Shown: piece by piece, positions 9,916-60,441 of the stretch
How positions within the stretch are numbered: the stretch's first letter is position 1
Layout of the letters: each line of letters begins with the position of its first letter
Assembly (NCBI GenBank): GCA_049679945.1
Contig: JBAUGW010000063.1
Span: 272 to 64,271, forward strand
From: Pyrinomonadaceae bacterium
Lineage (GTDB): Bacteria > Acidobacteriota > Blastocatellia > Pyrinomonadales > Pyrinomonadaceae
Length of the DNA: 64,000 nt
Direction: 5' to 3'
Notes under the pieces: generated by a model
What the model saw: the letters and a program-made list of their open reading frames with translations, nothing else
Database searches by the model: none
Told to the model about the DNA's origin: nothing
Position numbers and translations under genes: made by a program

Positions 9916-10373
9916 GTTCCAAGTTGCAAGTTCCAAGTTCCAAGGCATGGGTTTATGGCGAGATTTGAACGATTTGAAGAGATAGAAGGGTGGAAACTGG
10001 CGCGGCAAGTGACGAACCAAGTGTACGAGCTCAGTTCTGCTCCTGAATTCAGCCGAGATTTTGCGCTCGTAAATCAAATGCGCCGTGCATCAGTTTCAAT
10101 TATGTCGAATATTGCCGAAGGTTTCGAACGAGATGGCAACAAAGAATTTCTTCAATTTCTTTCGATAGCAAAGGGTTCGTGCGGAGAAGTGCGTTCCCAG
10201 CTATACGTTGCACTCGACAGAAAATACTTAGACGATAGACGATTTCATTCGGTCAGCTCGTTATTGATCGAAACATCAAAAGTGCTCTCAGGTCTAATGA
10301 AATATCTGAAACAGTCTGAAGAACGAGGGCGAAAATTCAAATAACTTGAAACATGGAACTTGAAACCTGGAAC
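9916..10373 (+). mobile_element. hairpin-bounded cassette carrying a four-helix-bundle gene
   Basis: Inverted heptamer-repeat arms at 9916-9945 and 10345-10373 (25/29 complementary by hand). They bracket the CDS at 9955-10344 and fill the MFP-RND gap exactly. Confidence 0.55.
9955..10344 (+). CDS. four helix bundle protein (23S rRNA intervening-sequence protein family)
   Basis: 129 aa. WKLARQVTNQVYEL...QMRRASVSIMSNIAEGFERDGNKEFLQFLSIAKGSCGEVRSQLYVA matches the family consensus as I recall it. Confidence 0.9.
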   Translation: MARFERFEEIEGWKLARQVTNQVYELSSAPEFSRDFALVNQMRRASVSIMSNIAEGFERDGNKEFLQFLSIAKGSCGEVRSQLYVALDRKYLDDRRFHSVSSLLIETSKVLSGLMKYLKQSEERGRKFK

Positions 10374-10382
10374 TAGATAGTT

Positions 10383-13300
10383 ATGCAGTGGTTAGCCGAA
10401 GTTTGTGTAAAGCGTCCTGTGTTTGCGACGATGCTGATCTTGTCGCTGGTCGTAGTCGGCGCGTTTTCGTTTCTGAGTCTCGGCGTCGATCTGTTTCCAA
10501 AGATCGACTTTCCGACGATCACAGTCACGGTCGTGAATCCCGGAGCGTCGCCGCAGGAGATCGAGACCGAGATCACCGAAAAGATCGAGGAGGCCGTCAA
10601 CACGATCAGCGGCATCGACGAATTGCGTTCGACATCGATCGAAGGCATCTCGCAAGTGTTTGTGCAGTTCGTGCTTGAGAAGGATGTTAATGTCGCCGCA
10701 CAAGAGGTCGAGAATCGCGTTCAGACCGTAATTCCAACCTTGCCGCAGACCGCTAAACAGCCGACTGTTCAAAAACTCGACACCGATGTCGCGCCGATCT
10801 TGCGTGTTTCGATTTCGGCGCCACGCTCGCTTCGCGAAGTCACTGAGACCGCAAAAAATAAAGTCAAGGAACGCATCGAGTCGGTAAACGGCGTCGGCCA
10901 GATCACGATCATCGGCGGCGTCGACCGGCAGATAAATGTGTGGGTCGATCCCGACAAGATGCGCTCCTATAACGTGACGCCGGCTGAGATCTCGGGCGCG
11001 CTTGCCGTGCAGAACATGGAGTTTCCGAGCGGAAGACTCGATGAAGGCCAAAAAGAAACGAGCGTTCGCACCATCGGGAAAATTCAAAAGGCTGAGGAAT
11101 TTAACGACCTCATCGTCGCAAATCGCGGCGGTTATCAAGTAAAAGTAAAAGATCTCGGCTATGTCGAGGACGGAGCCGAAGAGGCGCGTTCTGAAGCTCG
11201 TTTGAACGGACAGCCGGCCGTGACGCTAATCGTCTCAAAACAATCGGGACAAAATACCGTCGCCGTCGCACGCGAGATAAAAGAGCGACTCAAAGAGATC
11301 GAGCCGACTATGCCAAAAGATTTTCAGATGCGCATTATCGGCGACAACTCGATCTTTATCGAGAACAGTTTGCGCAATATCGAGGAGCACTTGATCGTCG
11401 GCTCAATCCTTGCGGCGATAGTGGTTTTTTTCTTCCTGTGGAATTTCCGGGCAACGTTCATCGCCGCAATAGCGATCCCAACCTCAATTATTTCAACATT
11501 TGCCCTGATGTATGCGATGGGTTACACGCTCAACTCGATCACGATGTTGTCGCTCACGCTGATGGTCGGCATCGTGATCGACGACGCGATCGTCGTACTC
11601 GAGAACATCTACCGCTTTGTCGAAGAGAAGGGCATGAACCCGTTTCAAGCCGCGATCGAAGGCACGCGTGAGATCGGCCTTGCCGTGCTGGCGACAACGC
11701 TTTCGCTGATGGCGGTGTTCGTTCCGATTGGTTTTATGCAGGGCATCGTCGGCAGATTTATGTCGTCGTTCGGGCTGACGGCGTCGTTCGCGGTCGCGGT
11801 TTCGCTGATCGTTTCGTTCACGCTGACGCCGATGCTCGCCGCGAGGCTTATTAAGAAGTCCAAAGTCCAAGGTCCAAAGTCCAAAGCCGTTAACGACGAA
11901 ATCCACGGAGACGGAATGTTATCGGAGGACGAGAAACCCAGGACTTTGGACATTGGCCATGAGACTTCGGACTCGCATTATACCGGCTGGTTTAGACGTG
12001 TCGACGGTGTTTACGCGTGGCTGCTGCGCTTTTCAATGTCGCATCGCTGGGTGATCGTCACGCTTTGTGCTCTTGTCTTTTTGAGCATTGTGCCGCTGTT
12101 TATGTTCGTCGGCAAAAACTTTTTGCCGGTCGATGACCAATCGCAATTCGAGATATCGGTTCGAGCGCCCGAGGGTTCGAGTCTCGGACAAACTTCGCAG
12201 ATCTTTGAGCAGATCGCGTCCGAGATTCGCAAGATTCGCGGCGTAACCGACACGCTCGCAACGGTCGGCGGCGGCCAGCAGCAAGTCGTCAACGCCGGCA
12301 CGATTTACGTCAAATTGTCCGACATAAAGACGCGCCCAAAATCGCAGGAGCTAATGATGGATGATGCGCGTGAGCTGTTAAAACAGTTTCCACCGGAGCT
12401 GCGAACCGGCGTTCAGCAGGTGCAGGCGTTCTCGGGCGGCGGTTTTCGCAACGCGAACGTGCAGTTCCTGATTGCCGGACCTGACATTGCAAAGTTAACG
12501 GAATACTCGGAAAAGATCGCCGCGAAAATGAAGACGGTTCCCGACGCCGTCGATGTCGATTCAACACTCATCGGCGGCAAGCCCGAGGTGCAGCTCGAAG
12601 TCGATCGTGACACGGCGGCCGATCTCGGCGTTCGTGTCGGCGATGTTTCACAGGCGCTCAACACTCTGATCGCGGGCCAGCAAGCTACGACATTCAACCA
12701 GGGAACCGACCAATACGAAGTGCGAGTTCGCGCGATCAATACATATCGCACGAGTATCGAGGGATTGAAACGCGTGATTGTTCCATCGACAAAACTCGGT
12801 TGGGTGACGCTCGACCGTGTCGTAAAAGCAAAGAGCGGCACCGGCCCGAGCGCCATCGACCGCACAAATCGCCAACGCCAAGTCACGCTGCTTGCCAACA
12901 CGCGTCCCGGCGGTTCGGCGGCGAGCATTACGGCCGCGATCGACAGTTACATCAAAGAGCTAAATCTTCCCACAGGTTATCGCACCGGTTACGTCGGCCA
13001 GTCGAAGGAGATGGGCAAGGCTGGATTTTATTTTCTGCTCGCGTTCGCGCTGTCATTCATCTTTATGTACATCGTGCTCGCCGCGCAATTCGAGTCGTTC
13101 ATTCACCCGGTGACGATCTTGCTGACGCTGCCGCTGTCGGTGCCGTTTGGGATTTTGAGCCTTTTGGTTGCGGGACAAACCGTGAACATCTTTTCCGGTC
13201 TCGGCCTGCTGCTGCTCTTCGGCGTCGTTAAGAAAAACGCGATCTTGCAGATCGATCATACGAACACGCTTCGATCACGCGGAATGTCGCGTTACGACGC

Positions 13301-13616
13301 GATCATCCAGGCAAATCGCGACCGTCTGCGCCCCATCCTTATGACTACGATCGCTCTCGTCGCCGGAATGATACCGCTCGTCGTAGGCTCGGGCGCCGGA
13401 GCCGGAACAAACCGTTCGATCGGAACGCTTGTCGTCGGCGGACAAACTTTGTGTTTACTCCTCACACTGCTGGCCGTGCCGGTTTTCTATTCGATATTCG
13501 ACGATCTCGCCGAGCTGCGTTTGTTTAGATACGTCAACCGTTTTGCAACCTCGCTCTTTGGCGGGTTAAAGCGACGCGTGGCAACGGCGACAAACTCAAT
13601 ATTCAGTAAACAATAA
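10383..13616 (+). CDS. efflux RND transporter permease (AcrB/HAE family)
   Basis: 1077 aa. Twelve-TM layout with two large periplasmic loops and a conserved N-terminus ([20 protein letters not shown]). Confidence 0.95.
11858..11972. repeat. heptamer-repeat inverted arms (GTCCAAA units) inside the RND CDS
   Basis: Left arm GTCCAAAGTCCAAGGTCCAAAGTCCAAAG (11858-11886). Right arm GGACTTTGGACATTGGCCATGAGACTTCGGAC (11941-11972). 54-nt spacer. Read in frame as SKVQGPKSK...[11 protein letters not shown]. Confidence 0.65.
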
Positions 13617-13627
13617 TCGCGTTTTAT

Positions 13628-15337
13628 ATGTTTCGCTTTTTTTCTATCATCGCTCTCACTGTGCTCGCTTTGGCGGCAGGCATGCGGGCGCAAACGCCGA
13701 TGCCCTCGCCGGAAAATGTGCCGGGTGTGCCCGATATCGCGCCGAATTATAGATCCGACGAACGCGGTTTGCCTGAATTAATGCGCGTCGGCGTCGATGT
13801 AACGCAGCAAAAAGCCTTGACCCTGAATGACGCGATAACGCTCGCGCTTGAGAACAACCGCGACATCGAAGTCACGCGAAAGACGGCGACGATCGCCGAG
13901 TTCGATCTGCGCGCGGCGCGCGGCTTTTATCAGCCACGGCTTTCGGGACAAACTTACTATGACCGCTCGACGACGCCGAACGTCAGCATCTTCAGCAGCA
14001 ATCAAAAGACGACAGTCGGCACGCTGCTCGGTAACGTCGCGCTTAATGCGCCGCTGACGAACAACGGAACCGTGCTGTCCGGCGGATTTAACAACCAACG
14101 CGTGACGACCGATAATCCAATCTCGATACTTAGTCCGCAACTAAATTCGAGTCTTAGCTTTTCTGTGACGCAGCCGTTGTTTCGGGGTCGACGAATCGAT
14201 CAGCCACGACGCACGATCGAGATCGCGAAGAAAAATATCGAGCTTACCGAAACACAATTTCGTCAGCGAACAATCGAAACTGTTGCGACTGTCGAGAAAG
14301 CTTATTGGGATCTGACATACGCGCTGCGCAATTTACAGGTCCAGCGTGACGCTGTTCGCGACGCGCGGCGGCAGCTCGAACACAATCGGCGATTGGTTAA
14401 CGAAGGCCAACTCGCCCCGATCGACATCGTCGCGGCCGAGACGCAAGTTGCAAACTTCGAGCAGTCGGTTTACGACGCGCTCAACACGGTCAATCTCGCT
14501 GAGAATGTTCTGAAAAATCTGATCTCGCCAAATCGCTCAAACGAAATTTGGAACGTCGCGCTCATGCCGGTCGAACCTGTCGAGGTCGCGATCCCGAATT
14601 CGACATTGGGCGAAGCCGTCGAACTTGCGCTCGACAATCGCCCCGAGCTTGAACTCAACAAAAAGCAAAAAGACATCAACTCAATTGACCGACGTTTCTA
14701 TCGCGATCAACAGCGGCCGCAGATTGATTTTTTTGCGAGCTACTCCTCAGCGGGAATCGGCGGCAGTCTTAATCCGAATTTCAGCAGCCCGTTTTGCGCG
14801 AACAGTCCCACGCCAGCGCTTTGCCAAGCTGGTGTGCAGACTCAACTACAGACATTTCTGTCTCAAATCGGAGGTAGCACTACGGCCGTAGCCGATATTT
14901 TTGTGAGAAAGTATCCCGTATTCCGTTTTGGTGTTAATTTCAATCTGCCGCTGTTTGGCGACAAAACTGCTTCGGCGCAATATGGCAAGTCCCTTGTCGA
15001 GGCCGAGCGGCTCGATGCTCAACGTGAGCAGATCGAGCAAGGGATTCAGGTCGAGGTTCGCAATGCGCTGCAATCGATACGCACCGCCGAAGCGCGGCTT
15101 CGCGCCGCCGCGATCGTTCGCGAAAATTCAATAAAGCAATACGAGTCCGAACAACGCAAACTCGACGAAGGCCAGTCGGACGTTTACCGCGTGCTTGAGC
15201 GCCAAACCGCGCTCACCATCGCGCGCAGCAACGAACTCCGCGCACGAATCGAATTGAACAAAGCCGTCACTGAGCTGACGCGTGCGACCGGCAACACGTT
15301 AAAAGCAAACAACATCGAGCCAAAGGTAAAGAAATGA
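13628..15337 (+). CDS. TolC family outer-membrane efflux protein
   Basis: Signal peptide followed by a duplicated OEP repeat architecture (LTLNDAITLALENNRDIE...). Confidence 0.9.
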   Translation: MFRFFSIIALTVLALAAGMRAQTPMPSPENVPGVPDIAPNYRSDERGLPELMRVGVDVTQQKALTLNDAITLALENNRDIEVTRKTATIAEFDLRAARGFYQPRLSGQTYYDRSTTPNVSIFSSNQKTTVGTLLGNVALNAPLTNNGTVLSGGFNNQRVTTDNPISILSPQLNSSLSFSVTQPLFRGRRIDQPRRTIEIAKKNIELTETQFRQRTIETVATVEKAYWDLTYALRNLQVQRDAVRDARRQLEHNRRLVNEGQLAPIDIVAAETQVANFEQSVYDALNTVNLAENVLKNLISPNRSNEIWNVALMPVEPVEVAIPNSTLGEAVELALDNRPELELNKKQKDINSIDRRFYRDQQRPQIDFFASYSSAGIGGSLNPNFSSPFCANSPTPALCQAGVQTQLQTFLSQIGGSTTAVADIFVRKYPVFRFGVNFNLPLFGDKTASAQYGKSLVEAERLDAQREQIEQGIQVEVRNALQSIRTAEARLRAAAIVRENSIKQYESEQRKLDEGQSDVYRVLERQTALTIARSNELRARIELNKAVTELTRATGNTLKANNIEPKVKK

Positions 15338-16317
15338 AAGCGGTTTACATAACCGAATTTGACGGCACGAGCATAGAGCTGCGCGACGTTCCCGATCTTG
15401 CGAAACCGACGGTTGAGCAAGTACTGGTCCGCGTTCAGGTTGCTGGTTTGAATCGCGCTGATCTGCTGCAAGCTCGTGGGCTCTATCCGCCGCCGGCCGG
15501 TTACTCGCCGAACGTTCCCGGTCTCGAGTTCGCGGGCGAGATCGCGGCTGTTGGCGACGATGTAAAAAATTTACAGGCAGGTGAGCGTGTATTCGGAATA
15601 ACTGCGGGCGAGGCGCAGGCTGAGTATTTGTTGATCGATGCAAGTTTGTGCGCCAAGATTCCCGACAATTTGTCTTTCGCACAAGCTGCTGCAATTCCCG
15701 AGGCGTTCATCACGGCGCACGACGCGATAATTACGCAAGGTGATCTGAAAAGCGGCGAGACATTACTGATACATGCCGTCGGTTCTGGCGTCGGTCTTGC
15801 AGCATTGCAGATAGCAAAATCAAAAGACGTAACCGTCGTCGGCACATCGCGAACCGCGGACAAGTTAGCGCGCTGTGACGAGTTTGGACTTGATGTCGGA
15901 ATTTTAACTGATAAAGAAATTCAGTTTGCAGAACAGATCGCCGACATCACCGACGGCAAAGGTGCAGACGTTATACTCGACCTTGTCGGTGCGGCACACT
16001 TTGAACAAAATGTTGCGAGTCTCGCACAAAAAGGAAGATTGATGTTGGTTGGTCTGACATCGGGTCGCACCGCTGAATTCAACCTCGGCATCGCTCTGCA
16101 AAAACGCGCTCACATCATCGGCACTGTCTTCCGTTCTAGATCGACGGAAGAAAAAGCTACGGCGACGCGCAGATTTGCCGACGAAATCGTTCCGCTGATC
16201 GCAGCCGGCATCATTCGTCCAAACCTCGATCGTGTTTTCGCAGCCGCAACCGTGGTCGATGCTCACAAATATCTTGAGTCTAACGAGAGTTTTGGAAAGG
16301 TCGTGTTGGAGTTTTAG
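15334..16317 (+). CDS. NAD(P)H:quinone oxidoreductase (zinc-type ADH superfamily, PIG3-like)
   Basis: MDR fold with the nucleotide-binding motif LIHAVGSGVGLAALQIAK. Confidence 0.9.
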   Translation: MKAVYITEFDGTSIELRDVPDLAKPTVEQVLVRVQVAGLNRADLLQARGLYPPPAGYSPNVPGLEFAGEIAAVGDDVKNLQAGERVFGITAGEAQAEYLLIDASLCAKIPDNLSFAQAAAIPEAFITAHDAIITQGDLKSGETLLIHAVGSGVGLAALQIAKSKDVTVVGTSRTADKLARCDEFGLDVGILTDKEIQFAEQIADITDGKGADVILDLVGAAHFEQNVASLAQKGRLMLVGLTSGRTAEFNLGIALQKRAHIIGTVFRSRSTEEKATATRRFADEIVPLIAAGIIRPNLDRVFAAATVVDAHKYLESNESFGKVVLEF

Positions 16318-16634
16318 ATTGCAATGTGCGCCGCGGCCGCGTCGGTGACGATGCAAAGTCCGGAGACACCGTTCACATCGAGTTCACCGATTAATTTGGC
16401 GGCTTGCGCATAAGTCAGGCCGCCGGCCTCGAGCTTGTCGAAAGAAACAACAGACCACATAGGTCGTTCGATATCGCAACCGATCACTTCAGGTTCATCC
16501 GACTCGATAAACTTCGACAGCGACTCGATAAAAGCCTCTTTTGCGATTCTATCGCCAAAAACATTATTCTGTCCGGCGACCGCCCGTCTTTTACGAAGAT
16601 GCGGCAGCCCGGACCTCATTTCCTGAATTCTCAT
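16314..16634 (-). CDS. hypothetical protein
   Basis: ORF with ATG at 16634 (the track TTG is at 16655). No motif recognised. Its 3' end overlaps the convergent gene by 4 nt. Confidence 0.45.
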   Translation of the reverse strand: MRIQEMRSGLPHLRKRRAVAGQNNVFGDRIAKEAFIESLSKFIESDEPEVIGCDIERPMWSVVSFDKLEAGGLTYAQAAKLIGELDVNGVSGLCIVTDAAAAHIAI

Positions 16635-16709
16635 ACAAACGTCGAGCGCAGCCAAACTTTATCATAGCCCCAAAAGTGATGTAAATACTTTTTTGTTTCG
16701 ACAGATTTA

Positions 16710-16875
16710 GCCACGAATGCACGAATGAATCGGAGTCAGTTCAAATTTTGTGGTGCTTTGCGTGCTTTGCGGCTTCGCGTGATAACAATGTGGTTTCACG
16801 CAAAGACGCTAAGATCGCAAAGTCTCGAACAGCATTAACGCCACATGCTCTGCTTTTTATTCGTGCATTCGTGGC
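16710..16875. repeat. nested empty double hairpin (CACGAAT arms enclosing GCAAAG arms)
   Basis: Outer arms are GCCACGAATGCACGAATGAA (16710-16729) and TTATTCGTGCATTCGTGGC (16857-16875). Inner arms are 16756-16782 and 16796-16822 (about 21/27 complementary). No ORF inside. Confidence 0.8.
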
Positions 16876-16913
16876 AAATTTCTTTAGCGACTTGGTAAAA
16901 TAAAATTCCGTTT

Positions 16914-17984
16914 ATGCTTTACCGCGAATCGTTTTTTATCACAGGCTTTCCGGGCTTTATCGCAAGCCGGCTTGCCGAGCAGCTAGTCGGGCCAGAGCGG
17001 CAGATGTTTCTGCTCGTCGAGCAGAGGTTCGTCGAGCTAGCGATGGAAGAGGTTGAGCAGATCGCCGAAGCCACCGCAACCCCGCTCGATAATTTTGTGA
17101 TCGTCGAGGGCGACATCACGCTGCCTAAGCTCGGAATCTCGGACGCCGATCTCGAGGTGATTCAAATCGAGACTACCGATATCTTCCATCTTGCTGCAGC
17201 GTACGATCTCGCAGTGGCGAAGGACATCGCGTTTGATGTAAATCTTCTCGGTACGCGGCACGTGAACGATCTTGCTTGTTCGATAAAAAATCTGCGGCGA
17301 TATCATTATGTCTCGACTTGTTACGTCGCCGGAAAACGGACGGGACAGATTCTCGAAACAGAACTGGAACACAGCGCCGGTTTTCGCAACTTTTACGAGG
17401 AAACAAAATATCTCGCCGAGCAAGAAGTTGAAAAATTAAAAAGCCACTTGCCGGTGACGATATATCGTCCGTCGGTCGTCGTCGGGGATTCGCAGACCGG
17501 CGAAACCGCAAAGTACGACGGCATATATCATTTGATCCACTATTTGCGAATGGCGCCTTTCCTGCTGCGCGTCGTAAACGTCGGCAACAACGACGTGCGA
17601 CTCAATCTCGTGCCCGTCGATTTTGTCGTCGATGCGATTGCAACTTTGGCATTCGATGAAGCGGCGCTCGGCAAGACGCTTGCGATCGCCGACGCCGCGC
17701 CGCTGACGACCGCTGAACTTTTTGACGTGCTTGCAAAAGAACTAACTGGCCGCAAATCCGAGTACACGCCGCCGACAAAAATTGTCGAGTGGTTTCTCAA
17801 CTTATCGATCTCGCCCGCGCTCACCGGCCTGCCAAATCACGGCGTGCCGTACTTTTTTCTCTCGCAAAATTACGATACGAGCATCGCCGACGAGCTTCTG
17901 AAAAAACACGACGTAATCTGTCCGCGATTTCAAGACTATGCCGGCAACTTGCTCGATTTTGTCGATGAGTTTCCGAAGCTTTGA
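16914..17984 (+). CDS. SDR-family NAD-dependent reductase (thioester/acyl reductase-like)
   Basis: N-terminal ITGFPGFIASRL Rossmann motif and a YEETK catalytic YxxxK. Confidence 0.8.
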   Translation: MLYRESFFITGFPGFIASRLAEQLVGPERQMFLLVEQRFVELAMEEVEQIAEATATPLDNFVIVEGDITLPKLGISDADLEVIQIETTDIFHLAAAYDLAVAKDIAFDVNLLGTRHVNDLACSIKNLRRYHYVSTCYVAGKRTGQILETELEHSAGFRNFYEETKYLAEQEVEKLKSHLPVTIYRPSVVVGDSQTGETAKYDGIYHLIHYLRMAPFLLRVVNVGNNDVRLNLVPVDFVVDAIATLAFDEAALGKTLAIADAAPLTTAELFDVLAKELTGRKSEYTPPTKIVEWFLNLSISPALTGLPNHGVPYFFLSQNYDTSIADELLKKHDVICPRFQDYAGNLLDFVDEFPKL

Positions 17985-18004
17985 TTTCATTGCGTTAATC
18001 GCAG

Positions 18005-18045
18005 CTTTGCGTGAGATTTCCCGCAAAGACGCAAAGACCGCAAAG
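18005..18045. repeat. GCAAAG-class repeat/hairpin
   Basis: CTTTGCG...CGCAAAG stem followed by ACGCAAAGACCGCAAAG tandem units, just after the stop at 17984. Confidence 0.55.
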
Positions 18046-18080
18046 CAAATGAATTCAAGTTTCGAGCATCATACTGCCGA

Positions 18081-19214
18081 ATGTTATTTAAGTCTGTATC
18101 TATAAAGACATTATTTTGTCTCGGTTTAATGGCCACCTCAGCGATTCTTGCTAGTGCGCAGAGTGGTCGCATTACTGCGACGCCGACCGCGACGCCGCCG
18201 GACGAAACTCTGCGAATCGACACCGAGGAGATCAAATTAAATGTCCTCGCATTTGACGAACGCGGCGAATTTTTTCGCGACGTGACTGCAAACGACCTCG
18301 TCATTTCAGAGAACAATATTCTGCATCCGCCGACGAGTGTGCGTCGCATTGCTGCAAATGTTTTGATAGTGATGGACACGGGCGGCGAACTCCGCAGCGT
18401 AAAAACTCTGGACCAAACACGAAAGGTAGCACGCGGCGTAGTTGAGAGTTTACGTCCGGGCGACTCGTTTTCCCTCATTAGTTACGCCGACAAGGCTGAG
18501 GTCGTCGGCGAGTGGACAAGCGACAAACAGCAAGCGCTCGCCGCGATAAAGCGGACGAATTTTGGCCGCCGCTCGGTCTTTGTCGATGCACTGAAACTCG
18601 CGACCGTTTTTTTGGAACGCTCAGGGCTCGATAACAAACACCTTGTCTTAATAACCGACGGCACCGACAGTCTCGGACGCTCGTCGCAGAAATTCGACGC
18701 GTTGCAGCGGCTGATGGCGACAGACGTCAGCGTTCATGTGATCAGTTACACCTCGATGGAAGCGGTTGCGATTGAGCCGCGAACCAAACGGACTTCGACG
18801 ACTCCGCCGCCTAAAGCTCTTCCGCCGGAGGTCGTCGATCAATTGCCTAACGACGTTAAGATCGCTGCCAAACGCCCAAAGATCGGCCCGACCATCAACA
18901 TGGACCGCACGCTGATCAAACGCATGAAAGCTCGCAAGGCCGAACTCGAAGCCGCACAAGAACAGCTCGAAAAGCTCGCCGAGAACACGAACGGCGAATT
19001 CATCCTGCCCGAAACCGTTGACGAAATGGTCGAGAAAGCCTCGCTTGTCGCACGCATGATCGACTCGTCATACGTCGTCACCTATATGCCAAAAATTTCC
19101 GTCGCCGAAACCCGAGGGCTAGCCGAGCGTAACATCGAGGTCACCTCAAAACGCCCCGGCCTCATCGTGCAGTCTCGACGCAAGCTGCTTATTCAGGCAG
19201 AAAAGAAGAATTAG
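18081..19214 (+). CDS. secreted VWA domain-containing protein
   Basis: Signal peptide, and a vWA core with a MIDAS-like VLIVMDTGGE...LISYADKAEVV...LVLITDGTDS. Confidence 0.85.
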   Translation: MLFKSVSIKTLFCLGLMATSAILASAQSGRITATPTATPPDETLRIDTEEIKLNVLAFDERGEFFRDVTANDLVISENNILHPPTSVRRIAANVLIVMDTGGELRSVKTLDQTRKVARGVVESLRPGDSFSLISYADKAEVVGEWTSDKQQALAAIKRTNFGRRSVFVDALKLATVFLERSGLDNKHLVLITDGTDSLGRSSQKFDALQRLMATDVSVHVISYTSMEAVAIEPRTKRTSTTPPPKALPPEVVDQLPNDVKIAAKRPKIGPTINMDRTLIKRMKARKAELEAAQEQLEKLAENTNGEFILPETVDEMVEKASLVARMIDSSYVVTYMPKISVAETRGLAERNIEVTSKRPGLIVQSRRKLLIQAEKKN

Positions 19215-19286
19215 CCACAGATGAACACGGATAAACTCAGATCAAGTTATTGATCTTATCTGTTTCCATCTGTGTTTATCTGTGGC
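19214..19286. repeat. CACAGAT-class hairpin between convergent genes
   Basis: GCCACAGATGAACACGGATAA ... TTATCTGT..CATCTGTGTTTATCTGTGGC. Likely a bidirectional terminator. Confidence 0.7.
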
Positions 19287-19294
19287 AAATATTC

Positions 19295-19780
19295 TTAGAT
19301 TAGCGGTCGGCTCGTGAAAACCCAATACAAAATAAACCCGCTCGCAATGATCGAACTGATGAGCAGCAAGACCAGCAGCCCGATCAACCCAAATACAAAA
19401 ATGTAATCACTCGTCTTGCCTTTGCCGTGGCCCGCGGCGCGTGTGCGGATGAGGTTCATGTTCTGTTTGTTGGCCTTCCAGACAAAATCGAACGCGTCGC
19501 CGACGAATGGCACCATTCCGACTACGTAATCGAGCCCGATATTAAACGCCATTCGTAGCAGCGTGATCTTTGGCACGCCGTAGCGAACGCCTGCGAACAA
19601 AATATAAAACGACGCGAATGACGTAAGCGTGTCGCCTACATTCGGCACGAGCCCGATCAGCGAATCAAGCCCAAACCGCCATCCCGTGCCCGGAATGCGA
19701 AACAGTCCGTCGAGATAATGCGACAGATCTTCAAGGCCTTCTTCGATCTCGATCTGACGTTTAGTTTGAATTTCCTTCAT
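19295..19780 (-). CDS. DUF4112 domain membrane protein
   Basis: FRIPGTGWRFGLDSLIGLVPNVGD...VPFVGDAFDFVWKANKQN matches the family motif from memory. Confidence 0.8.
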   Translation of the reverse strand: MKEIQTKRQIEIEEGLEDLSHYLDGLFRIPGTGWRFGLDSLIGLVPNVGDTLTSFASFYILFAGVRYGVPKITLLRMAFNIGLDYVVGMVPFVGDAFDFVWKANKQNMNLIRTRAAGHGKGKTSDYIFVFGLIGLLVLLLISSIIASGFILYWVFTSRPLI

Positions 19781-19787
19781 AAGAACT

Positions 19788-20195
19788 CGCCACAGAGAAC
19801 ACAGAGGTCACAGAGAAATGCGCTTAACTCCTTCGCGGAGCATCTTTGCGCCAAAGTTGATTAAGAGCCCACGTTTAAGACCGGTTGCTTTTAGATAAGA
19901 CAGAATCTGGGCGGTTGAGACGTCGGGGAGTTTACTGAGTGATTTGATCTCAACTATCACTTCTTCTTCAACGAGTATATCGATCCGCTGGCCTTTAATA
20001 ACTTTGTCTTTGTAAATGACATCTATCTCAAGCTGTCTCGAATAACGAATACCTCGCAAATCGAATTCATGACAAAGAGCTTCTTCATAAATCGACTCGA
20101 GCAAACCCGGACCGAGTGTTCAGTGAACTTCGATAGCTGCACCAATGATCTTCTGCGTAAGTACATCGTTTTCCTTCTCTGAGTTCTCTGTGGCG
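19788..20195 (-). mobile_element. hairpin-bounded cassette carrying a GxxExxY-family gene remnant
   Basis: Arms are CGCCACAGAGAACACAGAGGTCACAGAG (19788-19815) and CTCTGAGTTCTCTGTGGCG (20177-20195). 18/19 complementary over the shared part. Confidence 0.55.
19808..20173 (-). pseudogene. GxxExxY protein (PD-(D/E)XK-like) with in-frame TGA
   Basis: The track ORF starts at an internal TTG (LESIYEEALCHEF...). Reading upstream in the same frame gives ENDVLTQKIIGAAIEVH-TGA(20120-20122)-TLGPG, which is the family N-terminus. No in-frame ATG was found. Confidence 0.7.
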
Positions 20196-20197
20196 AA

Positions 20198-22468
20198 CTA
20201 TCTTCCGACTATCTTCACGGATAAGATTTTATCGCCGCGCACGATTTTATCTACGATCTTCATATCTTTTTCGCTGACGCGGCCGAATACCGTGTAGCCG
20301 CCGTCGAGGTGCGGCTGAGGGCTATGCGTCACAAACCACTGCGAACCGCCGGTGTCTTTTCCGCTCAGGGCCATGCCGACCGCGCCGCGTTCGTATGGCA
20401 GCATGTTTACTTCACAGCGGATCGACCAACCCGGACCGCCGTTGCCGTCGCCACGCGGATCGCCGTCCTGCATCACAAAGTTCGGCACGACGCGATGGAC
20501 TTCGAGGCCGTTGAAATACTTGCTTCGTGCAAGCTTTACAAAATTATCGACCGTCAGCGGCGCCTGTTCAGGATAAAAATCGATGGTGAACGTGCCTTTC
20601 TCTGTCGTCAGCATCGCCTTAACCGAGCCGTTTTTGCGCGACAACGCACGTCGATAATCCGAGTCAGTATTCAAAACCTGCCCAAGCTTTGTGCGTAGAG
20701 CCGCTACATACGGTAAAACCTGATCCCTGTGCAGTCCGCGGGCATTATTGACCGCCGTTTGGGTACCTACAGGGTTCTCTTGTTTCTGCGTCTCATCGAG
20801 CGATTCGAACGCCTTTTTGCGGACAAGGTAATCGGGGGCGTTCAGGGCGAGAAGAAACATTCGAACGGATCCCATCTTGTCGACCTTGAAAAGTGCGTCA
20901 AGGATCGAAAGCTGCGCGTCGTTTTCGGTCTTATCGGTCAGAAGTGCTTTTGTGAATGCGGCTTTCAATTCGTTCACATTTTCTTTTGATGCCGGGAGAT
21001 CCGCCAGCAGATTCGCGGCCGTTGCGCGTATCTGAACGTCGCTATGTTGTAAGTGTCGCCGCAAAACCTCGCCCAGATCAATTGGCTTGAAGGCAGCATA
21101 GGCGGTCAGCACATCCGGCACCGCCATAGGCGAAAGTCCTTTGTCGGCCATTAACAAACGCAAGATCTGCTGAGCCTCAGTCTTATATCTTTCAAGGTTT
21201 TCCGGATATTTCTCCTTTGGCAAAGTTGCTAGAGTGCCAAGCCCCTGCGCGATGCTCGATGCGCTGCGCCAATCCTTGAATATCGGCGAAGGAGCCGATG
21301 TAAAACGCCCCAGCATGCCGAGCATCAAAAGCTGCGGATCAACTTTTGCCCTAGCTATCGACGTTTCGGGCGCGTTCATTATCAACTGCAACAGACGTGG
21401 AGGAGCAGACTCATAGAGCGTTCCGCCCGCACTGCTTGGCGGAATATTTTTTTTCCCGGCCAAAATATTTCCTAATGCGGTTCCGATCTCAAGCCACTCG
21501 CTCAGTTCCGGGGGCGATGCATAATATTTTGTCGCGGCAAGACTTTTCCCATCACGCCGTATGACCTGCGTGATCGTCGCGGCTTGGTAATCTTCTAAGG
21601 GTCGCACAGCACGTTCATCCCTCAAATTGCCCAATGCCCTGACCGCCGAAACGCGCACGCGCGAGTCACTGTCGCTGGTTGCTGCTTTAATAAGAAGGTC
21701 AACCGCTTCGTTATCTTCGGCGGCGCCGAGGACGCGGGCGGCGTTGGCACGGACGACGGCGTCGCCGTGAGTTTTCAGCAGTTCGCGTGCTTCGACGTTG
21801 GCATTTTTTGCTCGCAGGCGGGCCAGTGTGTTTAGCGCGTCGGCAACGACAGCCGGGTCGGAGTAACGCAAAAACTTACGAGCGACATCTTCACCGCCCT
21901 GTGGTTTCGCTCTGAGGATGGCAGTCATGCCGAGTCGGATGATCTCAGTCGATGGAACAGAGCGTTTTGCGCTGTCAAAATCAACGGCTTTTAGAATCGC
22001 GGCACCGAGCTCTTTTGATCTCTCGTTTTTAGCGTTTACAGCGGCAATCTTGCCGGCTGCCTCGACAAGCCGCGCAACGACACTCGCCGGTTTCATCCCC
22101 GCGTCATTCTCGTTCAGCAACTCCGTTCCCGAACCAGGTCTTAACGCGTCAACGATCACATCGGCGCTTTTCACCGATTCGATCTCGCCCAGAGCGAAGG
22201 CGGCCATGACGCGAACTTTCTCCGATGCGTCGTTTGCTAGCAGGTTGGCGAGTGCTGGAATCGCTTCGTCGCGGCCAATGCGCCCGGCGGCGAGCGCGGC
22301 TCGCTCGCGCACTTCGGCGTTGGGCGATTTCATCAAATCTTCGAGCGTTTTGTCGTAGCGTCGCGCGTCTTCGGCTTTTAGGATTTGGATGCCGATGTTT
22401 AAGGGAATCTGCGCAGGAATCGCAACGGCGAAACAAATTAGAGCGATGAGTGATGCAAAGTACTTCAT
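20198..22468 (-). CDS. HEAT-repeat protein fused to C-terminal cyclophilin-type peptidyl-prolyl isomerase
   Basis: Signal peptide, about 550 aa of HEAT-like repeats (VRERAALAAGRIG, VRVMAAFALGEI, VRVSAVRALGNL), then a cyclophilin core (FYPEQAPLTVDNFVKLA...GGSQWFVTH). Confidence 0.85.
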   Translation of the reverse strand: MKYFASLIALICFAVAIPAQIPLNIGIQILKAEDARRYDKTLEDLMKSPNAEVRERAALAAGRIGRDEAIPALANLLANDASEKVRVMAAFALGEIESVKSADVIVDALRPGSGTELLNENDAGMKPASVVARLVEAAGKIAAVNAKNERSKELGAAILKAVDFDSAKRSVPSTEIIRLGMTAILRAKPQGGEDVARKFLRYSDPAVVADALNTLARLRAKNANVEARELLKTHGDAVVRANAARVLGAAEDNEAVDLLIKAATSDSDSRVRVSAVRALGNLRDERAVRPLEDYQAATITQVIRRDGKSLAATKYYASPPELSEWLEIGTALGNILAGKKNIPPSSAGGTLYESAPPRLLQLIMNAPETSIARAKVDPQLLMLGMLGRFTSAPSPIFKDWRSASSIAQGLGTLATLPKEKYPENLERYKTEAQQILRLLMADKGLSPMAVPDVLTAYAAFKPIDLGEVLRRHLQHSDVQIRATAANLLADLPASKENVNELKAAFTKALLTDKTENDAQLSILDALFKVDKMGSVRMFLLALNAPDYLVRKKAFESLDETQKQENPVGTQTAVNNARGLHRDQVLPYVAALRTKLGQVLNTDSDYRRALSRKNGSVKAMLTTEKGTFTIDFYPEQAPLTVDNFVKLARSKYFNGLEVHRVVPNFVMQDGDPRGDGNGGPGWSIRCEVNMLPYERGAVGMALSGKDTGGSQWFVTHSPQPHLDGGYTVFGRVSEKDMKIVDKIVRGDKILSVKIVGR

Positions 22469-22487
22469 GTTAAGCGTCTGTTCTGTC

Positions 22488-22568
22488 GCCCGCTAAGCGG
22501 GCTCTGGTAAATTATTGCGTTTTCCCCCACGCTTCGCATGGGGCTAAATTCCGTCGCTGCTCCGCAGC
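22488..22568. repeat. cluster of three short GC hairpins
   Basis: GCCCGCTAAGCGGGC (22488-22502), CCCCACGCTTCGCATGGGG (22525-22543) and GCTGCTCCGCAGC (22556-22568), between two same-strand genes. Confidence 0.4.
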
Positions 22569-22993: not shown

Positions 22994-23064
22994 AATTTTA
23001 TTGTCTGTTATGACGCGATTTTAACATAATCTTGGCTGGGATAGCCGAACCCGCGAACAACCCT

Positions 23065-23080
23065 TGGCACGGAATATGCT
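23065..23080 (+). promoter_or_regulatory. candidate sigma54 (-24/-12) promoter
   Basis: TGGCACGGAATATGCT compared with the consensus TGGCAC-N5-TTGCW has one mismatch. It lies about 50-60 nt upstream of the next start codon. Confidence 0.35.
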
Positions 23081-23138
23081 TCATAACGCGCACGACGGGT
23101 AATTGTGCCCGATTCTCTAAATAATAAGGATGGCCATT

Positions 23139-24731: not shown

Positions 24732-24739
24732 ACCAAGCT

Positions 24740-24878: not shown

Positions 24879-24916
24879 AGCCTTTTTCTAACTTAAATTA
24901 CTTGTCGGACTTCTCT

Positions 24917-24952: not shown

Positions 24953-24986
24953 TATCATGCCTTATCTGTTTTTATCTGTGTGATCT

Positions 24987-25793
24987 GTGGCCATTTCTTT
25001 CAAAACACTTCCTGAGAAGTTCGAACAGTACCGCGACCGCAAATGGCGGCGTGATGATTCTTTGAAGATCGATTCCGCCGAAGAAGTCGAGGCCATGGTC
25101 GAGGAATTGGGTTTTTGTCTCGGCTTAACGGATGCGCGCAAAATGATGCCTTCGGTTTACATTGCCGTCTGCGGTCGCCGCGACGCGCACATGCCGCGAA
25201 ATGTGCAGAAAGATTTCGAGGCGAGCCGCGCGTGGGTTTTGAAGGACGAGGTTATTGCACGCGGAAAAGTTTATTACGCAAAACTGGTAAAAGGACATTC
25301 GATGTTCCTCGCCCCGCGAATGATCCCTGTCTTCAATACCATCTGGGGCGTGCCGAAAACCCGCGAGGCAAAAGACCTTTCAGGCAGCGCCAACAAGATA
25401 CTAAAAGTGCTGCGCAAAGAATGGGAAATGGGCTCGGCCGACCTTCGCGCCGCGGCGCAGATCACGACCCGGCCGCGATTCACAAAAGCGATGGACAAAC
25501 TGCAGAAGACGATGAAGGTCCTGCCGCAGGAAGTTCTATACTCGCCCAAGTTCACATACATCTGGACGCTCGCCGAAGCGCGTTTTCCTGAAGAGCTAAA
25601 AATAAAAATGAAACGCGAGACGGCCGTTCGCGAACTCGCACGAACATACTTGCAAATGTGCGGAATGACGCTGCTAGGCGATCTTTCGCGCACATTCGGT
25701 TTCTATCGTTGGGAATCTGGTAAGGCAAATCACGAGCTTGTGGATGAAGGTTTTGCGGAGCGTCTGACAACCGGTGTTTATAAGTTAAGATAA
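24987..25793 (+). CDS. hypothetical protein (possibly winged-helix-like)
   Basis: 268-aa ORF with a GTG start that lies inside the CACAGAT-class repeat. No confident motif. Repeat arms on both sides. Confidence 0.55.
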   Translation: MAISFKTLPEKFEQYRDRKWRRDDSLKIDSAEEVEAMVEELGFCLGLTDARKMMPSVYIAVCGRRDAHMPRNVQKDFEASRAWVLKDEVIARGKVYYAKLVKGHSMFLAPRMIPVFNTIWGVPKTREAKDLSGSANKILKVLRKEWEMGSADLRAAAQITTRPRFTKAMDKLQKTMKVLPQEVLYSPKFTYIWTLAEARFPEELKIKMKRETAVRELARTYLQMCGMTLLGDLSRTFGFYRWESGKANHELVDEGFAERLTTGVYKLR

Positions 25794-25795
25794 CT

Positions 25796-25874
25796 CACCA
25801 CAGAGCCACAGAGAGTGCAGAGACCACTGAAAAAAACAAAGCAATTCTTCGATGTTCTCTGTGGGCTCGGTGGC
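25796..25874. repeat. CACAGAG-class hairpin between convergent genes
   Basis: CACCACAGAGCCACAGAG ... CTCTGTGGGCTCGGTG. The right end overlaps the stop codon of the M20 peptidase gene. Confidence 0.65.
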
Positions 25875-27418: not shown

Positions 27419-27422
27419 AAAA

Positions 27423-34830: not shown

Positions 34831-34897
34831 GCCACTAATGACACGAATAGCACTAATAAATGCACTTCTAATTCGTGACATTCGTGCTATTCGCGGC
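34831..34897. repeat. CACGAAT-class imperfect hairpin
   Basis: GCCACTAATGACACGAATAGCACTAAT and ATTCGTGACATTCGTGCTATTCGCGGC, about 20/27 complementary. Confidence 0.6.
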
Positions 34898-49809: not shown

Positions 49810-50860
<1,051 letters not shown>

Positions 50861-53816: not shown

Positions 53817-53879
53817 GCCACGAATGAACACGAATAGCACGAATAAGATCAAATCGTGTTATTCGTGTCCATCCGTGGC
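53817..53879. repeat. CACGAAT-class hairpin between convergent genes
   Basis: GCCACGAATGAACACGAATAGCA against the reverse complement of TGTTATTCGTGTCCATCCGTGGC is about 20/23. Likely a bidirectional terminator. Confidence 0.75.
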
Positions 53880-55075
53880 TAATTCCTCTTCTTTCTTAAT
53901 GTAACCAGTATCGCATCGCCCACCTTTCTCTCGCCTTCTTTGTCTGACGGACGATTGACCACTTTGCCGTCGAGAAACATCGTCGTCGAGCCGCCGCCGT
54001 CGAGATTCATCGCGTCCATCGCACCAAGCTCGAGCATGTATTTTGCGAGATCGTAAAGATCAAGCCCCGCACTCTGCTCCGTACGTCCATCGACCGTTAT
54101 CATCAGAAATTTGCCGTCTTTCAACTTCGCCACCGCCGTGCGCGGATGCCGCGTCTCGACAAACGACTTCGACGCCTTTTCCTGCTCCCAGGTAATATCG
54201 ATCTTGCCGTTTTTGATAAGCTGCGGAACGCCAGCAACAATATCTTCTGCTTCAGGAAAGAAACTGTTCTTTGGGGCCGGAAGCGGTCCGATACCGATAA
54301 CAACTCTTAGATCGACCCTCTCCTTCACGTGGTAAAGGATATTATTGGACTTTTCTAGAGCGTTCTTCCCAATCGAGATAACATAGCCACCTGTCGGAAT
54401 TACCGAATTTCCTTTGCCATTGGAAATCTCAGCCTTAAAGCACCTTTTCTGCATTCCGTTATTCGCGCAATCTCTGAGAATCAATTCCGTTCCGCTATCG
54501 TCGGTCAGTGTAGTGCGGTTGAAATCGGGCGTGTATAGAATAATCTCATCAATTTTCCGCTCACGATTCACACCCGCAAACCAGAATTCAGTATCGACGC
54601 CAAACCCGACGACGCTAATGGAATGGAGGTGTCCAAACTTTGCTTCTGTCTTGTCCTTTTCGTTTGCGATAGCGAGTGCGACTCGATTGTTGGTGCTTTC
54701 GCTCAATAACTTGTGATCAATCATCAAGACACCTGCCGCATCGCCTGCCCAGATACTGTTGTCGAGTCTGAAAAACCCCGCATTTATCGCCGCGAATGCA
54801 CTGTGGCGCGTGGCGATGGACGAGGTTTTTTCCGTGCCGATGGCCATGTCCATTGCGTGGTGGACGTCGAGACGGACTTTTTTTAGATCGAGGCGGAGAA
54901 GGTTGATATTGACGGGCTTACCGCTGAATTCACGCGCTACTCGCGCATACTCAACGCCGTCGGCGACGGCTTTCCACTCCTGAGCGAAGATATTCACCAC
55001 AGAGGCACAGAGAACACAGAGGGTAAAAATCAGGCGGGTTGGTCGAACTGACGGTTTATTTAAATAGAATTTCAT
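53879..55075 (-). CDS. phosphodiester glycosidase (NAGPA/DUF2233) family protein, secreted
   Basis: The start at ATG 55075 gives a signal peptide MKFYLNKPSVRPTRLIFTLCVLCASVVNIFA. C-terminal NLDGGGSTTM motif. Confidence 0.8.
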   Translation of the reverse strand: MKFYLNKPSVRPTRLIFTLCVLCASVVNIFAQEWKAVADGVEYARVAREFSGKPVNINLLRLDLKKVRLDVHHAMDMAIGTEKTSSIATRHSAFAAINAGFFRLDNSIWAGDAAGVLMIDHKLLSESTNNRVALAIANEKDKTEAKFGHLHSISVVGFGVDTEFWFAGVNRERKIDEIILYTPDFNRTTLTDDSGTELILRDCANNGMQKRCFKAEISNGKGNSVIPTGGYVISIGKNALEKSNNILYHVKERVDLRVVIGIGPLPAPKNSFFPEAEDIVAGVPQLIKNGKIDITWEQEKASKSFVETRHPRTAVAKLKDGKFLMITVDGRTEQSAGLDLYDLAKYMLELGAMDAMNLDGGGSTTMFLDGKVVNRPSDKEGERKVGDAILVTLRKKRN

Positions 55076-55120
55076 GTTTCTTTTGGCTTTCTCCGTGATC
55101 TCTGTGCCTCTGTGGTGAAT
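54992..55120. repeat. CACAGAG-class hairpin enclosing the start codon of the glycosidase gene
   Basis: Perfect 21-bp arms ATTCACCACAGAGGCACAGAG (54992-55012) and CTCTGTGCCTCTGTGGTGAAT (55100-55120), with partial extension. The loop contains the ATG at 55073-55075. Confidence 0.85.
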
Positions 55121-59976: not shown

Positions 59977-60029
59977 GGAACTCAGGCTGCCAGCCTGCAA
60001 GTCACACGCTGGCAAGCTACCTGCGTTCC
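59977..60029. repeat. short palindromic element between convergent genes
   Basis: GGAACTCAGG...CCTGCGTTCC outer arms with an inner CAGGCTG/CAGCCTG. Probable terminator. Confidence 0.45.
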
Positions 60030-60032
60030 GAC

Positions 60033-60326
60033 TTACCAGTTAACCTTTCCTTCTTGCGAGGTGTCGATCTGCGTTAGCTCGACGCCTTCGTTAAAGAGAA
60101 AGATCTTCATGTTGTCGAAAAGAAAGTCGTGCGAGTCGGGATTCGATACATCGAGACCGAAGTGATTGATGAGCTGCATCTGTTTTGTCTGCCACTCTTT
60201 CCAACATCCCTGACAGATCTCGTCAAATACACGCTGGCCGAGCTCTGTCGGTATAGGCGCAAACGCGAGTTTGTCGCCTTTGCCGCTGCAGCGTGTGCAT
60301 TCAAATTTGTCACCAAAAATAGCCAT
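60033..60326 (-). CDS. YggX-like Fe(2+)-trafficking / oxidative-damage protection protein
   Basis: From ATG 60326: ...ELGQRVFDEICQGCWKEWQTKQMQLINHFGL...FLFNEG parallels the YggX consensus. Confidence 0.8.
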   Translation of the reverse strand: MAIFGDKFECTRCSGKGDKLAFAPIPTELGQRVFDEICQGCWKEWQTKQMQLINHFGLDVSNPDSHDFLFDNMKIFLFNEGVELTQIDTSQEGKVNW

Positions 60327-60379
60327 AACTAGATTCAAGCCAGATTCTGGCAAAAAAATACTTGCCAGTGCTAAAGCCT

Positions 60380-60441
60380 AACACAGATGAATACAGATAT
60401 TAATTCAACCAAAATCTGAGTTTATCTGTGTCCATCTGTGG
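60380..60441. repeat. CACAGAT-class hairpin
   Basis: AACACAGATGAATACAGATA and TTTATCTGTGTCCATCTGTGG, about 16/18 complementary, between two same-strand genes. Confidence 0.65.

Follow-up and report, generated by a model that had tools for sequence, protein, structure and literature searches.

A stretch of 64,000 nucleotides (nt) from contig JBAUGW010000063.1 of a Pyrinomonadaceae bacterium, called the window in what follows, carries pairs of inverted arms that are built of short tandem units and are able to form long stems. We believe, with a probability of about 0.6, that these elements are small, selfish gene cassettes of the intervening sequence (IVS) type residing outside the rRNA genes, together with relics of such cassettes that are devoid of an open reading frame (ORF). 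The ORFs bracketed by arms in the window belong to the two protein families that are annotated from the IVSs of 23S rRNA.

A full cassette would consist of one small ORF, of either the TIGR02436 or the TIGR04256 family, located in the loop of a long stem. The strands of the stem would be inverted arrays of tandem units: GTTCAAA-like heptamers in the case of TIGR02436, and GCCAC plus CACAGAG-like 9-mers in the case of TIGR04256. Such cassettes would be inserted in sense within operons, tight against the stop and start codons of the neighbouring genes.

The four-helix-bundle gene and its arms

The first cassette of the window contains a gene for a four-helix-bundle intervening-sequence protein (IVP) and consists of the following parts.

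9916..9945, plus strand: left arm of the IVP cassette, four GTTCCAA-type heptamers directly after the TAA stop of the membrane-fusion (MFP) gene
9955..10344, plus strand: IVP cargo ORF of 129 amino acids (aa), a four-helix-bundle/23S rRNA intervening-sequence protein with matches to PF05635, TIGR02436 and PDB 2GSC
10345..10373, plus strand: right-hand arm, following the ORF stop without a gap, 9 nt before the AcrB start

The ORF matches PF05635 with E=1e-34 (119.4 bits against a cut-off of 33.8) and has a full-length match to TIGR02436 with E=6e-34 (116.6 bits against a cut-off of 24). Among solved structures, its nearest relative is PDB 2GSC (E=9e-13), an entry with five chains of one sequence. 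PF05635 also takes in the Avd accessory proteins of diversity-generating retroelements. The IVS protein domain was still called functionally uncharacterised in a 2024 survey (PMC11270868).

To find further genes of this kind, the window IVP protein was scanned against species-representative genomes, which gave 80 loci from more than 15 phyla, picked by their similarity to the window protein (50-71% identity). These loci, the window and locus L008 form a test set of 82. For each IVP gene, the 150 nt upstream were aligned with the reverse complement of the 150 nt downstream. The sequence-only reading of this DNA had spoken of an IVS-like family with occasional cargo, and this description is borne out: two IVS protein families are bracketed, the build is similar to that of the Coxiella IVS, and the flanks of the IVP gene score above the 99th percentile of a shuffled null in 78 of the 82 loci. 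The score is at least 14 in 68 of the 82. At least three tandem units are present in both arms at 61 of these 68 strong loci, which is the arrangement of the Coxiella-type heptamers, and the period of the units is 7 in 55 of them. The unit has the form GTT-Y-N-R-R, as in GTTCAAA, GTCCAAA, GTTTCGA and GGTTTCT. As arms are general around the genes of the 82-locus test, the GTTCCAA class represents the standard flank of this gene family.

The class of the arm unit follows the IVP protein tree, and the arms travel with the ORF. The nearest protein neighbour has arms of the same unit class in 35 of the 68 loci, compared to an expectation of 8.8 and a maximum of 22 in 1000 permutations. The genes next to the IVP gene are nearly always on its strand (76 of 77 loci upstream, 73 of 78 downstream), and the window ORF is co-directional with the MFP-AcrB operon that surrounds it.

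The junction between the MFP gene and the RND pump gene is a recurrent home of IVP cassettes. It accounts for 16 of the 82 loci (L008, L088-L092, L095, L098, L100, L102, L107, L114, L118, L155, L163 and window 9916-10373), Bacteroidota and Planctomycetota among them. This occupancy extends to paralogous pumps with 34-42% identity of the MFP, and to other phyla.

The GxxExxY gene and its arms

The second cassette of the window lies on the minus strand, and its gene is no longer intact.

19788..19815, minus strand: 3' arm (in gene orientation) of the GxxExxY cassette, overlapping the last codons and the stop (..ISL*)
19808..20176, minus strand: cargo gene of the GxxExxY PD-(D/E)XK type by its matches to PF13366 and TIGR04256, and a pseudogene by frame analysis
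20177..20195, minus strand: the other arm of this cassette, 5' as the gene reads, separated by 2 nt from the HEAT/cyclophilin stop codon

The ORF at 19808-20104 matches PF13366 with E=3e-31 and TIGR04256 with 107.7 bits against a cut-off of 35. The window copy is dead because a loss of 2 nt removes the ATG, and an in-frame TGA is found at about codon 19 (..IEVH*TLGPG...). Relatives with the same junction (L190-L192) have an intact gene of 122 aa. The intact GxxExxY genes examined are located at the YggS-YggT, PilR-pilin, DUF937/CLIPPER-MetH and HEAT-DUF4112 junctions of Acidobacteriota and at one locus of Kiritimatiellae, all of them with arms of the GCCAC-CACAGAG type. The layout at these five is [GCCAC + about three CACAGAG-like 9-mers]-ATG...ORF...TCTCTGTGA-[inverted units + GTGGC], and the 3' arm of the cassettes overlaps the near-invariant RISL-stop end of the protein. 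The CACAGAG/CACAGAT class of arms thus represents the flank of a second cassette.

In 25 homologues, neither the GxxExxY nor the D...ExK motif varies; the residues of the latter are D66, E76 and K78. No sequence match to the GxxExxY protein was found in the PDB, and its AlphaFold model, calculated from a shallow alignment of 25 sequences, has a mean pLDDT of 48.6.

This layout is not shared by a Thermodesulfovibrio locus (L165), where a CACAGAT-type hairpin is present on each side of the GxxExxY gene. The gene, at 19400-20130 of that locus, is positioned between direct repeats of about 130 nt, each with a TTAAGCCACAGAT...GCGGCTAATTA hairpin, so that the same terminal motif is found in a distant phylum in a different arrangement. 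In the database gene calls of two GxxExxY proteins (P0293 and P0317), an N-terminal extension '..TENTENTE' is the left arm, made of ACAGAGAAC repeats, read in frame, and is an artefact of annotation.

Decay of the cassettes

The sequence-only reading had proposed a presence/absence comparison among relatives, in which junctions are found in intact, decayed, hairpin-only, single-arm and bare states. At the HEAT-DUF4112 junction, the gene is intact in L190, a pseudogene in the window, and replaced by short-loop hairpins without an ORF in L001 and L004. The latter hairpins can still be aligned with the ends of the cassette, and the alignment takes in the Shine-Dalgarno-like GAGAAGGA that preceded the former start. 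The MFP-AcrB junction is occupied by the intact cassette in the window, in L008 and in about 12 other loci, by a 5'-truncated gene in L030 and by the right arm alone in L001 and L004; a bare gap of 7-27 nt is found in L010, L014, L018, L021, L024, L033 and L082.

The loop lengths of 227 hairpins are bimodal, with one group below 60 nt and another at 400-500 nt. The hairpins without an ORF share the handedness of the cassettes in a ratio of 43:6, which is made up of 25:5 in the CAC/CGC type and 18:1 in the GTTCAAA type.

Two further groups of candidates were set aside. The ORFs between more distant array pairs in other phyla (sugar epimerases, NusG-like and RelE-like proteins) are ordinary neighbours between adjacent hairpins and not cargo. 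P0254 and P0275, listed with 88 and 74 contigs, respectively, looked like multi-copy elements, and each is the same locus from many samples.

Hairpins of the window

The window is ordinary chromosomal DNA with about 52% GC and about 60 housekeeping-type genes. The nearest named homologues of its SDR protein and the closest genome records belong to Pyrinomonadaceae. A tRNA scan of the window found no tRNA gene, and a search at the Rfam gathering thresholds found no family. No transposase, integrase or transposase associated with repetitive extragenic palindromes (RAYT) was found among the 60 window proteins scanned. Comparisons drew on 80 related metagenome loci (about 790 kb) and on about 850 kb of related Acidobacteriota. 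No matches to 16S or 23S rRNA were found in about 190 loci searched, including the 80 IVP loci.

All 18 stretches listed in the sequence-only reading are present with the content described there. In addition to the two cassettes, they form the following elements, for which no strand is assigned except for the first.

11858..11972, plus strand: ORF-less element of the IVP arm class, GTCCAAA x4 and its complement, in frame in the linker between transmembrane segments TM6 and TM7 of AcrB
16710-16729 and 16857-16875: arms of an outer CACGAAT hairpin in a divergent region, with a second hairpin inside
16756..16822: nested GCAAAG-type hairpin, CTTTGCG first, missing from the orthologous outer hairpin of L001
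17985..18045: GCAAAG-type hairpin in the SDR-VWA gap, left arm partly degenerate; the L001 and L004 orthologues have compensatory unit variants
19214..19286: CACAGAT hairpin between convergent genes, the first base being the G of the VWA TAG stop
24961..24992: arm of the CACAGAT type (ATCTGTG units) that has no partner, located where an AlkZ-related gene begins
25796..25874: CACAGAG hairpin between convergent genes, the last base lying within the M20 peptidase stop codon
33694..33777: GCAAAG-type hairpin, CGCAAAG first, separating co-directional genes of the minus strand, with the radical-SAM stop codon in the base of its stem
34831..34897: CACGAAT hairpin with ends TTAGCC...GGCTAA, the last base overlapping the GNAT stop codon
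41961..42010: CACGAAT hairpin between convergent genes
53817..53879: CACGAAT hairpin between the convergent ClpB-like and NAGPA genes, the last base overlapping the NAGPA stop codon
54992..55120: CACAGAG hairpin spanning the probable NAGPA start, with arms 54992-55021 and 55091-55120
60380..60441: CACAGAT hairpin separating co-directional genes of the minus strand

Each arm measures 19-35 nt and contains 2-5 tandem units of 7-10 nt, with 77-95% complementarity between partners. The loops are 11-70 nt long, or 360-400 nt where a gene is bracketed. The terminal inverted repeats are able to form a long enclosing stem, as in an IVS, and the hairpins fold as RNA with energies between -18 and -78 kcal/mol, for which the z-scores relative to shuffled sequences lie between -2.3 and -10.7. 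The arrays were detected as at least three units of a 6-mer (at most one mismatch, spacing 7-11 nt) that have an inverted partner no more than 600 nt away, with a score of 13 or higher. The expected enrichment over shuffled sequence was found in the window, where the detector reports 14 partnered arrays compared to 0, 0, 1, 0, 0, 0, 0, 0, 0 and 0 in ten shuffles that preserve dinucleotides.

Several parts of the earlier description have to be modified. The arms had been said to fill most intergenic gaps, and they are found in 14 of the 41 gaps of at least 25 nt, or about one third; one further element, 54992-55120, spans a start codon rather than a gap. The division into four families is an artefact of viewing a single window, as the related loci show an open-ended series of units. 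About 100 further partnered arrays are present in these loci, with many other units (GGTGAAT, GGGATGA, ATTTGCG, CGTAAAT, TTCCAAA and CGCAGAT among them) and a very patchy distribution between lineages. That paired arms belong to one class is true, but trivial for any inverted repeat. The element within a coding sequence is real, and its loop is native AcrB coding sequence. The hairpin given as 18005-18045 is present, and its left arm reaches 17985 in degenerate form. The arm at 24961-24992 is also present, but it is solitary. It is the only solitary array in the window, the 14 others being partnered, an arrangement different from the direct repeats of the STRR/TAACTGA type.

The CAC-type copies either have the G of a TAG stop as their first base or close with a TAG stop. 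Their two flanks are AGAAGAATTA and TAATTCTTC, in the form AGAAGAATTA|GCCAC...GTGGC|TAATTCTTC. The CACAGAT hairpins of the window are flanked by AGAAGA-like sequence, and the CACGAAT class has the same TTAGCCAC...GTGGCTAA ends as the CACAGAG/CACAGAT class.

Short-loop hairpins of the window and its relatives (n=58 in about 850 kb) are found 14 times in 80 convergent gaps, 31 times in 288 co-directional gaps and 4 times in 103 divergent gaps, and five are located in coding sequence. A purely terminator-like role had been doubted, and rightly so: copies are present in a coding sequence, across a start codon and in divergent regions, and a canonical terminator scan of 9001-28000 called 43 sites, none of them at a tandem-unit hairpin. 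The tails of the hairpins read TAATTCTTC and not the T-run of an intrinsic terminator. Genuine terminators with a GC stem and a T-run are present elsewhere in the window.

Variation of the arrays

Orthologous hairpins stay in place while their units change on both arms. CACAGAT/CACAGAG of the window corresponds to CGCAGAT/CGCAGAG in L001, and in the element within AcrB, GTCCAAA corresponds to GTCGCGA between orthologues, both arms being altered. Co-variation of the arms, another check that had been proposed, is indeed observed: double-sided changes that keep the pair occur in 9 of 33 and 4 of 18 predicted pairs, in a comparison of three orthologues only.

L001 and L002 are near-identical and encode an identical SDR protein. 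At 5027-5160 of L001, the two loci differ by 21 nt, which is exactly three heptamers, in the right arm of the element within the AcrB coding sequence, and the difference is in frame.

A possible history of the elements

By combining these observations, it is possible to propose how the elements function and change. When a cassette is transcribed with its operon, the two arms would pair in the transcript and form a duplex of at least 25 bp, a known substrate of RNase III. Cleavage by RNase III would then make the insertion tolerable and give rise to a site of processing or a 3' end, an effect demonstrated for the IVSs of rRNA. The ORFs would decay and be deleted in the course of time, leaving short-loop hairpins or single arms. 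Such relics would constitute 13 of the 15 elements of the window. The arrays would be kept tandem and complementary by processes at the DNA level, likely slippage of units and copying between arms or between copies. As for the spread of the cassettes, one possible means is homing into vacant palindromes driven by a nuclease. Of this scheme, the anatomy of the elements, their tie to cargo genes, the bias of orientation, the stages of decay and the behaviour of the arrays are shown by the sequences.

A number of observations do not fit this scheme easily and have to be set against it. The processing of these hairpins by RNase III is proposed by analogy, and mobility, with its means, is suggested solely by the diversity of contexts. 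No G·U excess was found on the sense strand of 68 IVP stems (91 G·T compared to 83 A·C mismatches). Selection at the RNA level is therefore not visible, and the complementarity looks as if it were kept at the DNA level, by slippage and inter-arm copying. No consistent target-site duplication was seen at the borders examined, no identical copies were seen at different sites in one genome, and no gain event was seen among near-identical strains. The GCAAAG type has no bias of handedness (5:5), and neither this class nor the CACGAAT class was found with cargo. Finally, as the IVP loci were picked via similarity to the window protein, the result of the flank test covers one subfamily of PF05635.

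Arms around resident sequence are a further complication. Most relatives have an AcrB linker of 87-96 nt, the core of which is a conserved GDGM. The linker measures 129-132 nt in the window, L004 and L001, where the arrays flank the native conserved GDGM-coding core. The NAGPA gene (53879-55075, minus strand) has its probable start ATG, at 55075, in the loop of a hairpin. The arm at 54992-55021 encodes the hydrophobic core of the signal peptide, TLCVLCASVVN, and the arm at 55091-55120 lies in the 5' leader. One repeat arm thus serves as coding sequence, and the stem closes around the start region. Because the AcrB and NAGPA arms flank resident sequence, arms can arise there, and simple insertion followed by deletion fails as an explanation. 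Furthermore, a short conserved GCAAAGnTTTGC palindrome followed by GGCATCA-ACC is found in the SDR-VWA gap of distant relatives (L015, L016, L022, L025, L062, L078, L079 and L084). The window lineage has expanded GCAAAG arrays in this gap. The palindrome may have seeded growth in place, or it may act as a regulatory site.

Alternative explanations

A broader reading, which we regard as possible but less likely than not, is put forward tentatively. The two IVS protein families might represent an undescribed class of mobile cassettes spreading in operons of many phyla, with rRNA IVSs being only their best-known landing site. The arms would then be functional ends, either made or renewed by an enzyme or recognised by the encoded protein, and could be installed around resident DNA such as the AcrB linker and the NAGPA start. 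The inverted geometry of the arms would follow if the same repeat were added to both 3' ends of a linear copy. In the case of recognition, the GxxExxY PD-(D/E)XK protein might act as a homing nuclease directed by palindromes or cruciforms. The four-helix-bundle protein might be a reader of four to five heptamers, its solved relative PDB 2GSC having five identical chains.

It is also conceivable, and on the whole unlikely, that the structures are made by the host. Stems that serve as terminators or stabilise mRNA would have grown in place from short palindromes by slippage of 7-10 nt and template switching between the arms, and the ORFs would be secondary lodgers in harmless loops. The native sequence between the AcrB arms, the GCAAAGnTTTGC seed palindrome in distant relatives at the position of the arrays of this lineage, and the three-unit indel between near-identical strains can all be explained in this way. 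The missing G·U bias fits templating at the DNA level. The hairpins are enriched behind genes compared to divergent gaps, the flanks of AGAAGAATTA|GCCAC...GTGGC|TAATTCTTC resemble an A-tract and a U-tract, and the types of unit are open-ended. Growth in place does not account, however, for a unit class that is tied to the ORF family across phyla and follows the protein tree, or for a 3' arm that belongs to the coding end of the GxxExxY gene. Nor would it produce the 43:6 excess of cassette handedness among ORF-less hairpins, or ORF-less hairpins that align to the cassette ends, GAGAAGGA included, at the site of the window cassette. True terminators with a GC stem and a T-run exist elsewhere in the window, and no hairpin at 9-28 kb has their features. 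For the classes that have no cargo, growth of host hairpins in place is a live rival.

Another explanation, which appears improbable, is that the units are iterated DNA or RNA sites for a host protein or for the encoded four-helix-bundle or GxxExxY nuclease-fold protein, and that their inverted layout reflects symmetric binding (autoregulation or partition-like pairing) and not a stem. The specificity of the unit class for the ORF family and its co-variation with the protein tree would be natural for binding sites, and so would the absence of a G·U bias and the shift of the unit consensus between related genomes at more than one site. The arms commonly have 4-5 units, and the PDB 2GSC entry has 5 chains of one sequence. 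However, most copies in the window have no ORF and the sole GxxExxY gene is dead, and yet the arms are paired and change in concert. The spacing of the units varies from 7 to 10 nt, and the complementarity of the arms runs through the spacers between units, which binding sites alone do not need.

The least probable explanation, and a very improbable one, is that the elements are non-autonomous transposons, either repetitive extragenic palindromes (REP) and the mosaic elements composed of them (BIME) or miniature inverted-repeat transposable elements (MITEs), moved in trans by a RAYT or insertion-sequence transposase encoded elsewhere in the genome. Their dispersed and mostly extragenic location, the termini TTAGCCAC...GTGGCTAA shared by copies of a class, the frequent TA at the borders and a consensus that differs between related genomes are consistent with this, but the 60 window proteins include neither a RAYT nor any other transposase or an integrase, no consistent target-site duplication accompanies the elements, the units are not palindromic 35-mers, the copies of a class differ widely in sequence, length, unit number, spacers and loops, as those of a MITE would not, and the elements persist at orthologous sites of relatives whose proteins are 75-90% identical, without turnover of presence and absence. 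The earlier label 'REP/BIME-like' is not supported: the units are non-palindromic, 7-10 nt long, and give a palindrome only when two arrays are combined, and the 60 window proteins include no RAYT. An integron attC reading was set aside, as no integrase was found among the window proteins and repeats stand on either side of the ORF.

Significance

If the elements are IVS-type cassettes and their relics, the IVSs of rRNA become a special case of a general operon-invading element, the origin and spread of which become testable. A literature search found no paper describing the arm rule outside rRNA, and the one description of such arms that it brought up is that of the Coxiella IVS. The rule provides a genomic signature for two very large families of unknown function, PF05635 and PF13366: a promoter-less sense ORF in an operon, between inverted arrays specific to the family. 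In a soil lineage that has received little study, it also accounts for about one in three of the gaps that are 25 nt or longer. Annotation is affected as well, as the arms supply stop codons, false N-terminal extensions ('TENTEN') and parts of a signal peptide or a pump linker. If cleavage by RNase III proves to be true, the hairpins would be natural modules of operon processing.

Other features of the window

A second population of palindromic repeats, not made of tandem units, is present at 30340-30403/30498-30561, 24737-24761/24857-24881, 37231-37332, 49633-49668/49731-49766 and 22469-22537. Examples are arms of 64 nt with 83% complementarity and a GCCCCCACGTAAGTAAGGGC-type hairpin that resembles L001 18197-18303. 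This population may be a separate REP-like family.

An uncalled small ORF at roughly 41749-41947 (in 41683-41960) ends just before the CACGAAT hairpin at 41961-42010. The ORF at 49819-50643 matches only the first 259 of the 552 positions of the alanyl-tRNA synthetase catalytic domain, and the 'gap' after it, 50644-50860, reads like a fragment of a LuxR/GerE helix-turn-helix. The region 49819-50860 may represent a truncated or rearranged gene.

Comparison with known systems

The closest known counterpart of the elements is the IVS of 23S rRNA in Coxiella, Leptospira, Salmonella and others, which likewise has a stem of terminal inverted repeats and an optional sense ORF of the S23p/four-helix-bundle type that is subject to decay. 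The IVS of Coxiella has tandem heptamers within the stem, as do the elements described here. Its 28-bp stem contains 3-4 tandem GACAGAT heptamers after an AGAAGA tract, the number of units varies between strains, RNase III cuts the stem, and a decaying S23p ORF is located in the loop (PMC4990558). Unlike the rRNA IVSs, the elements described here are positioned at operon junctions, at the 3' ends of genes, in the linker of a coding sequence and at a start codon, and none is inserted in rRNA. Most of the copies are devoid of an ORF, and there is a second cargo family, GxxExxY, with its own type of arm. Cleavage of the stem by RNase III has been shown for the rRNA IVSs and is proposed for the present elements.

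Free-standing homing endonuclease genes are similar in that they are small promoter-less sense ORFs between host genes, with a patchy occurrence at the same junction, and the GxxExxY cargo family has an intact PD-(D/E)XK motif. Inverted tandem arrays, however, are no feature of known homing genes, and the four-helix-bundle cargo does not have a nuclease fold.

In Neisseria, the inverted repeats of Correia elements fold in the mRNA and are cut by RNase III. Like the elements of the window, these MITEs are short inverted-repeat elements within transcription units that can supply stop codons and alter the processing of mRNA. Correia copies are near-identical, with fixed terminal repeats of 26 bp and a TA duplication, whereas the arrays found here are variable and their full-length relatives encode proteins that are not transposases. 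REP/BIME elements with a RAYT are, like the present ones, dispersed, mostly extragenic, hairpin-forming, often located behind genes, and of a genome-specific consensus; the difference is that the present elements are tandem arrays and their cargo genes are not HUH transposases.

The heptamers of cyanobacteria and Beggiatoaceae (STRR, TAACTGA) share with the arms described here the 7-nt tandem units, the intergenic location and the patchy distribution across phyla (PMC4679880). They are direct arrays, in contrast to inverted pairs tied to two gene families. In a Beggiatoa genome, 169 sets of heptamer repeats are direct and one set is inverted (PMC4679880).

Intrinsic terminators, finally, also have a stable stem behind stop codons and, like the present hairpins, are enriched in convergent gaps. 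The CAC-type hairpins resemble them further in being preceded by a weak A-rich tract and followed by a T/C-rich one. The stems of the present elements, however, are 20-35 bp long, with loops of up to 70 nt and no true T-run, and copies are also located in a coding sequence, across a start codon and upstream of genes.

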